Below are positions 1 to 201 of a DNA stretch of 201 nt, piece by piece (positions within the stretch are counted from its first letter, which is position 1; every line of letters starts with the position of its first letter). A model generated the notes under the pieces. It worked only from the letters and a program-made list of their open reading frames with translations. It did no database searches and was not told where the DNA came from. The DNA lies in NCBI RefSeq assembly GCF_003334255.1, contig NZ_QOWU01000286.1; one strand, 5' to 3'. Both the position numbers and the translations under genes were made by a program. The DNA comes from Escherichia coli. GTDB taxonomy: Bacteria; Pseudomonadota; Gammaproteobacteria; Enterobacterales; Enterobacteriaceae.

Positions 1-201
1 GTGGCGCAACGGCCAGAACCTGTACCTGGACAATATGGAGGCCACGGGCTTTTACCGGGTGCCCCTGTCCTCTGCACTGCCGGGCGATATCCTGCTGTGC
101 TGCTTCGGCGCATCGGTGGCTAATCATGCCGCCATTTACTGCGGCAACGGTGAGCTGCTTCACCATCTGCCTGAACAACTGAGTAAACGGGAGAGGTATT
201 C
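1..201 (+). CDS. K: Phage tail tip assembly protein K homologue (lambda gene K family, NlpC/P60-type C-terminal region); internal fragment, truncated at both window edges
   Basis: Seen in sequence: the phase with codons at 2-4, 5-7 ... 197-199 is open across the whole window and gives 66 codons with no stop. Phase 1 has TAA at 121-123 and phase 3 has TGA at 180-182. Third-position G+C is about 47 of 66 codons, and 9 of 10 Leu codons are CTG, which is typical enterobacterial/lambdoid coding usage. Established knowledge, recalled from memory and not searched: the translation closely resembles the C-terminal part of phage lambda K, especially the segments WRNGQNLYLDN, PGD-hydrophobic-LLCCFG, NHAAIYCG-x-GELLHH and PEQLSKRERY. 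Exact identity cannot be computed here. Confidence 0.88.
83..166 (+). other. NlpC/P60 papain-like peptidase signature block within the K homologue (His motif and downstream polar residue)
   Basis: Seen in sequence: codons 80-88 encode P-G-D followed by hydrophobic I-L-L (89-97); codons 122-139 encode N-H-A-A-I-Y; codons 143-166 encode G-N-G-E-L-L-H-H. Established knowledge: this matches the canonical NlpC/P60 pattern (GD-hydrophobic ... H-x-G/A-I-Y-x-G-x-G ... H), in which the first His is the catalytic His and the later His is the third polar residue. The catalytic Cys normally lies about 50 residues N-terminal, so it should be upstream of this window. Confidence 0.7.

Follow-up and report, generated by a model that had tools for sequence, protein, structure and literature searches.

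The tail-tip assembly protein K of phage lambda (gpK) is required for tail assembly, and it is neither detected in virions by mass spectrometry nor resolved in cryo-EM maps (PMC10721106, PMC12617516). It joins a JAB domain to an NlpC/P60 domain and is predicted to process the ubiquitin-like protein I (Iyer et al., PMC1779556). This protease-trimming idea dates from 2006 (PMC1779556), and the literature on K cited here reports no substrate, no biochemical activity and no biochemical demonstration of trimming. In the F-pyocin of P. aeruginosa, a tailocin and not a phage, PA0639 is described as a gpK homologue: a non-structural protein that is required for the tail tip, is absent from the particles and whose deletion results in tubes without tips (bioRxiv 10.64898/2026.02.24.707460). 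We liken PA0639 to K by this description and not by sequence.

Two further phages carry described relatives. HK97 gp K (NP_037713.1) and N15 gene 19 (NP_046914.1) belong to the same two-domain family, are encoded after L and share the invariant residues W, G, GD, NHA, LLHH and LS; they differ from the lambda type in lacking its C-terminal extension and the K/I overlap of ~100 nt. Closest to the locus studied here are the K proteins of E. coli prophages and Stx phages, represented by WP_175055555.1 in NZ_CP145707.1, by the IMG/VR loci L053, L070 and L080, and by Stx2_KH16-043 (LC616079.1). These proteins have a 247-aa JAB plus NlpC/P60 architecture and the gene order L-K-I-J, and their genes are 95-98% identical at the nucleotide level to the window, by which we mean the whole 201-nt stretch of DNA analysed here.

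Gene identity and relatives of the window

Translation of the window in six frames left two frames free of stops: frame +2 (codons from nt 2), which encodes the 66-aa peptide WRNGQNLYLDNMEATGFYRVPLSSALPGDILLCCFGASVANHAAIYCGNGELLHHLPEQLSKRERY, and the codon-aligned antisense frame -3. Across all 34 distinct haplotypes collected, frame +2 was the sole frame without stops. The phrog_30 profile ('minor tail protein') matches the 66-aa peptide with an E value of 6e-39, and the gene and its reading frame are established. The window codons correspond to residues 98-163 of the annotated 199-aa lambda K and to residues 146-211 of the 247-aa full-length relatives, while nt 1 and nt 200-201 are parts of the flanking codons. 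The two open frames are as follows.

Positions 2 to 199, plus strand: gene K, 66 complete codons, encoding the second half of the NlpC/P60 (C40) peptidase domain.
Positions 1 to 201, minus strand: open frame -3, codon-aligned with K and judged a non-coding shadow ORF; it runs to 237 codons in L053.

To place this fragment among known alleles, the window was compared by megablast with 50,697 phage records, 5,426 complete E. coli genomes and plasmids. Among the phage records 150 matched, all of them Escherichia or Enterobacteria phages or Stx1/Stx2-converting phages, at no more than 96.0% nucleotide identity, with the Stx1/Stx2-converting phages at 95-96%. Where annotated, these matches are named 'tail tip assembly protein K', 'tail protein' or 'phage tail assembly protein'. 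Megablast detected one or more copies of K in 1,889 of the 5,426 E. coli genomes (median 2 and maximum 13 per genome); the best prophage match reached 98.0%, and among the matches listed all are annotated 'C40 family peptidase'. No exact match to the window occurred in the phage records, the E. coli genomes or the plasmids, and no record of the prophage and Stx phage group is identical to it. Exact sub-sequence searches agreed in finding a 100-mer absent from viral contigs, and a 61-mer and a 32-mer absent from the genome contigs searched; a 32-mer of the window was present in three viral contigs, none closer than 96.5%. A homologous-protein search with the 66-aa peptide returned only partial proteins, the best of them 94% identical.

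The gene neighborhood is that of a lambda-like tail. In NZ_CP145707.1, at 98% nucleotide identity, the genes run tape measure, M-like, L, K, I, J and Lom, and the tail genes of lambda, HK97 and N15 follow the same order. We also compared 80 IMG/VR loci encoding close relatives. The three closest of these, L053, L070 and L080, encode the window peptide save for R147C within intact 247-aa genes. The window is distinguished by having A14, L26 and P27 together with a synonymous C at nt 43 that is private to it. The R147C change itself falls at window codon 2 (nt 5, CGC to TGC), a column that is highly variable across the family.

The window is thus very probably an internal fragment of gene K, encoding the tail-tip assembly protein K, from a lambda-type siphovirus prophage of Escherichia or a close relative, and it belongs with the allele group of Stx-converting phages and many E. 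coli prophages and not with lambda itself. The 201 nt lie inside the gene, apart from its own start and stop, the catalytic Cys, the JAB domain and the neighboring genes, and it is the relatives that point to an intact K gene. K is already well known and abundantly annotated, and the window is a routine fragment with nothing novel in it: one more allele, of little consequence, of a gene whose annotated copies in E. coli prophages and Stx phages number in the thousands.

Divergence from lambda K and selection

As the lambda reference we used NC_001416, with the K CDS at 14276..14875 (NP_040598.1). The window aligns without gaps to positions 14566-14766, with 163 of 201 nucleotides identical (81%), and its peptide aligns without gaps to lambda K residues 98-163, with 56 of 66 residues identical (85%). 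This leaves 38 nucleotide and ten amino acid differences, the latter as follows.

Codon 35-37: M in the window, L in lambda; BLOSUM62 +2.
Codon 50-52: F in the window, L in lambda; BLOSUM62 0.
Codon 56-58: R in the window, Q in lambda; BLOSUM62 +1.
Codon 71-73 (residue 24): S in the window, A in lambda; BLOSUM62 +1.
Codon 77-79 (residue 26): L in the window, Q in lambda; BLOSUM62 -2.
Codon 89-91 (residue 30): I in the window, V in lambda; BLOSUM62 +3.
Codon 110-112: A in the window, S in lambda; BLOSUM62 +1.
Codon 119-121: A in the window, P in lambda; BLOSUM62 -1.
Codon 146-148: N in the window, D in lambda; BLOSUM62 +1.
Codon 167-169: L in the window, I in lambda; BLOSUM62 +2.

The original prediction had described such scattered differences and named seven codons. 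All seven carry the residue it gave and differ from lambda; its list was nevertheless incomplete, as three replacements (S24 for A, L26 for Q and I30 for V) had been missed. Its description of the changes as mostly conservative also agrees with the data. The ten replacements have a mean BLOSUM62 score of +0.8, against -0.62 for the full set of non-synonymous changes that one base substitution could make in the lambda fragment (resampling P=0.004), and eight of the ten score 0 or higher (resampling P=0.036). Among 110 diverse members of the family, all ten fall in variable columns; F17 of the window is the family consensus, and lambda has a minority residue there.

Selection on the window was assessed over the 66 codons by the method of Nei and Gojobori (NG86). 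The differences from lambda are distributed over codon positions 1, 2 and 3 as 9, 2 and 26, a pattern far from random, and amount to 26 synonymous and 11 non-synonymous changes. The resulting dN of 0.077 and dS of 0.947 give an omega of 0.08 (Fisher p 2e-11), a value that is approximate for so short a fragment and a dS near saturation but certain in its direction. As a control, omega was computed in each of the remaining five frames, with values of 0.23-7.7, and the pooled pN/pS among the 34 haplotypes was 0.14. Strong purifying selection on the window frame is clear from the sequence comparison, as the original prediction had proposed. That prediction would have been contradicted by complete identity to lambda K, by a dN/dS near 1 or by disrupting changes; instead, both peptide and nucleotide sequence differ from lambda, omega is far below 1 and the 66 codons contain no stop or indel. 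The divergence from lambda is the ordinary outcome of purifying selection on a conserved tail-assembly enzyme.

That the window might be lambda itself or a laboratory lambda derivative, with the supposed differences being errors, is a possibility that the original prediction had itself flagged; nothing speaks for it, and it is ruled out by the 38 nucleotide and 10 amino acid differences from NC_001416. The K region of a second lambda record, OM418627.1, is identical to NC_001416 over the window-equivalent stretch. The window K and lambda gpK share gap-free homology, the PGD, NHAAIY, LLHH and LSKRERY motifs and a GAGGT before the start of gene I; the replacements listed above separate them, and a dS of ~0.95 shows long separation. 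HK97 gp K and N15 gene 19, whose comparison had been proposed at the outset, are each only 35% identical to the window peptide. The window is accordingly a lambda-type K, neither lambda itself nor of the HK97/N15 type.

The view of the window as a distinct lambdoid lineage rather than lambda holds in its negative part, since at 81% nucleotide identity the window is not lambda and sits in a different, very common K group. The word lineage, on the other hand, has to be read loosely because one IMG/VR locus, L047 (IMGVR_UViG_643348545_000006), mixes lambda-like and window-like residues. More specifically, L047 is lambda-like at window residues 12, 17, 19, 30 and 40 and window-like at residues 24, 37, 49 and 56. 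This intermediate allele hints at recombination or gradual divergence inside K, and the K alleles appear to form a partly mosaic continuum.

The lambda annotation itself calls for a remark. NC_001416 lacks one G near 14266/14267, reading GGAGGC-TATTTC where OM418627.1 has GGAGGCGTATTTC (L001 1134-1280, equivalent to lambda 14133-14279). Because of this missing G, the first 45 codons of K (MTQTESAILAHARRCAPAESCGFVV...) are out of frame with the rest, and the annotated K is a protein of 199 aa that lacks the JAB start. OM418627.1 (L083 801-1544) contains an uninterrupted K ORF of 246 codons from 14132, yet K is annotated there from 14276 as well. Comparisons that use the 199-aa lambda K entry therefore miss the N-terminus.

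Domains, proposed role of K and rival readings

Full-length K has two peptidase domains, an N-terminal metallopeptidase domain of JAB/MPN type and a C-terminal papain-like cysteine peptidase domain of NlpC/P60 type. In the 247-aa relative, Pfam assigns a Prok-JAB domain (PF14464) to residues 3-105 (E 9e-15) and an NLPC_P60 domain (PF00877) to residues 111-224 (E 3.3e-13). The PF00877 assignment of the window, which spans residues 146-211, is carried over from this full-length relative; the nearest relatives differ from the window by 1-3 aa within it. Partial proteins that are 83-94% identical to the window peptide over all 66 residues carry a precomputed PF00877 as well. NCBIfam returned no match for the fragment and only sub-threshold matches for the full-length protein. 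A search of both window strands against Rfam gave nothing credible (best E 0.89, 16.8 bits against a gathering score of 49).

To see which residues are conserved, 2,750 relatives were drawn from 1.84 billion representatives, and 110 full-length sequences, with 17-83% identity to the query over the region of the window, were aligned. Five residues encoded by the window are near-invariant (D174, H187, H199, H200 and S206; 95-98% of the 110), followed by F162, G161, L177, N186, L205, W146 and Y191 (82-90%), all of which are present in the window. The positions of the five are given below.

Positions 86 to 88, plus strand: GAT codon of D174 (window residue 29) in the 'PGD' motif; D in 108 of 110 family members.
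Positions 125 to 127, plus strand: CAT codon of H187 (window residue 42) in the motif NHAAIY, the predicted catalytic His of a Cys-His-His triad; H in 108 of 110, aligned with the conserved His of 9ubf and 4xcm, two NlpC/P60 enzymes of solved structure.
Positions 161 to 166, plus strand: CAC CAT codons of H199-H200 (window residues 54-55), one of which is predicted to be the third, polar triad residue; H in 108 and 104 of 110, respectively.
Positions 182 to 184, plus strand: AGT codon of S206 (window residue 61), near-invariant; S in 108 of 110.

HMMER alignment places the third triad residue at H199 when made to 4xcm and at H200 when made to 9ubf. The predicted catalytic Cys, C121 (in GVTDCY), lies in the relatives ~75 nt upstream of the window and is kept in 106 of the 110; in an AlphaFold2 model, a helix comprising residues 121-131 is predicted to begin at this residue. 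The JAB/MPN (JAMM) zinc motif, E...HxH...S..D, is located outside the window; the relatives keep H68, S69, H70, S78 and D81.

The model was computed for the L053 K sequence carrying the window peptide and has a mean pLDDT of 97.3. Foldseek matched its N-terminal half to the JAMM1 deubiquitinase homologue PfJAMM1 (5ld9/5lda) and its C-terminal half, with a probability of 1.00, to MepS (8xup), Spr, Acd33800 (9ubf) and LytE (8i2e), so that the half encoded in part by the window is predicted to adopt a papain-like alpha+beta fold. A Foldseek search with the full-length model found no solved structure that spans both K domains. MepS/Spr (2k1g, 8xup), C. difficile Acd33800 and B. subtilis LytE have the papain-like fold and a Cys-His-His arrangement as in K, the NlpC/P60 family being MEROPS C40, and the modeled C-terminal half of K superposes on such NlpC/P60 endopeptidases at ~2.5-3 Å over ~120 residues with an identity of ~16-22%. 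K differs from these cell-wall endopeptidases by carrying a JAB domain and by working in the assembly of the tail, and the Pfam scan showed neither a signal peptide nor a cell-wall-binding module in it.

Within the published framework, K would act as a non-structural maturation factor during building of the tail tip, at the J-I-L-K step, and its peptidase domains would probably process another tail protein, the published candidate being the ubiquitin-like gpI. On the basis of the literature, K is thus best read as a peptidase that acts transiently in tail-tip maturation. In the allele group of the window the triad residues are strongly constrained, which fits a catalytic role. A more specific proposal, which we consider possible but put forward tentatively, is that the papain-like half and the JAB domain act jointly as a protease that trims the ubiquitin-like gpI or the tape-measure gpH in tail-tip assembly. 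If true, such trimming by K would be a phage counterpart of deubiquitinase-type processing. The wider interest of K lies in this pairing of a JAB and NlpC/P60 double peptidase with an adjoining ubiquitin-like protein, for which the catalytic role is a prediction.

The same fold matches could be taken to mean that the NlpC/P60 half is a peptidoglycan endopeptidase that helps the tail to cross the cell wall at infection, and not an assembly protease. The closest solved folds are indeed cell-wall endopeptidases (MepS/Spr, Acd33800 and LytE), and TIGR02219, described as 'putative phage cell wall peptidase, NlpC/P60 family', is matched weakly, at 20.5 bits (E 5e-4), below its cutoff of 81.9. An infection-stage enzyme would have to travel with the particle, however, and gpK has been neither detected in lambda virions by mass spectrometry nor resolved by cryo-EM (PMC10721106, PMC12617516), while its F-pyocin homologue is missing from the particles and the deletion blocks tip assembly (bioRxiv 10.64898/2026.02.24.707460); absence from particles therefore argues against such an enzyme. 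The conserved JAB fusion beside a ubiquitin-like protein also points to a protein substrate (PMC1779556). We regard a cell-wall function as unlikely and retain the reading of K as a maturation peptidase.

Two other readings concern whether the window frame is still in use and whether it is the only coding frame. Many E. coli prophages are defective, and the window could come from a decaying K pseudogene in a cryptic prophage, with the low omega against lambda recording past selection only. The gene ends lie outside the window, many K proteins in the database are partial, though most of these are contig-end fragments, and against the NZ_CP145707.1 locus (L002) the window shows three non-synonymous and one synonymous difference, an omega of ~1 but with n=4. 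Against L053 the ratio is reversed, with three synonymous and one non-synonymous difference, and across L053, L070 and L080 it is 3-4 synonymous to 1 non-synonymous; with only 4-5 differences each, these nearest-relative comparisons lack the power to reveal whether selection was recently relaxed. The 66 uninterrupted codons, the retention of every near-invariant family residue and the single-residue distance from three intact 247-aa genes all make decay improbable, more so than a cell-wall function, and we continue to read the window as part of a probably intact K gene. The remaining possibility, that the 237-codon antisense frame across K encodes a real protein, is extremely remote. No stop interrupts frame -3 in the window or in 32 of 34 haplotypes, but the omega of this frame is 1.6, lambda has three stops in it within the window, two of the 34 haplotypes have one, and 13 of 66 full-length haplotypes interrupt it. 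In L053 the antisense ORF occupies 3018-3729 on the minus strand (window -416 to 295), and its limits are set by codons 6 and 244, the sole TCA codons of K. The frame is open because it is codon-aligned with K, which avoids TTA, CTA and TCA codons (2 against 3.4 expected from the neighboring genes).

A 40-aa GTG ORF at positions 1..123 in frame +1 was likewise rejected, with an omega of 7.7 and a stop in 34 of 34 haplotypes.

The start of gene I and the K/I overlap

The 3' end of the window carries a second type of signal within the K codons.

Positions 193 to 197, plus strand: GAGGT, probable Shine-Dalgarno sequence of the overlapping gene I, within the K codons Glu-Arg-Tyr; based on the annotation of lambda OM418627.1.

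OM418627.1 annotates the ribosome-binding site of gene I at 14758-14762, equivalent to window positions 193-197, and the start of I at 14773; in the window, the ATG of gene I would fall 7 nt past the end. The ribosome-binding site from which gene I is translated thus appears to lie within the K codons. From the corresponding ATG, the nearest relatives have an open I frame with a conserved N-terminus (MATTNAFCLASPPLARICLHGDLQRFGRR, compared with MAATHTLPLASPGMARICLYGDLQRFGRR in lambda), and the ~100-nt K/I overlap is therefore conserved in the allele group of the window. Furthermore, the 21-nt 3' end of the window is identical in 81 of 83 sequences. In the last block, 4 of 11 third positions vary, compared with 5-9 elsewhere, which is suggestive of reduced synonymous variation but comprises too few sites for a firmer statement.

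The annotated start of gene I differs between records. In lambda, it is the ATG inside the 'DKW' codons of K (103-nt overlap, L001 1774), preceded by the GAGGT site. PGAP, in NZ_CP145707.1, starts I ~100 nt later at an ATG overlapping the K stop (L002 6208 vs 6307). With this later start the protein loses the conserved N-terminal ARICL(H/Y)GDLQRFGRR, a segment that probably forms the first strand of the ubiquitin-like domain. Window-type alleles lack the internal Met of lambda in I, with PPLARICL instead of PGMARICL.

In lambda-type K the overlap with I falls on the C-terminal tail, possibly as a result of overprinting. The K proteins of HK97 and N15 end ~20-25 residues before the lambda-type K and do not overlap gene I (L084 1803-3443; L085 2982-4291), and in HK97 K and I are 321 nt apart, with a putative terminator between them.
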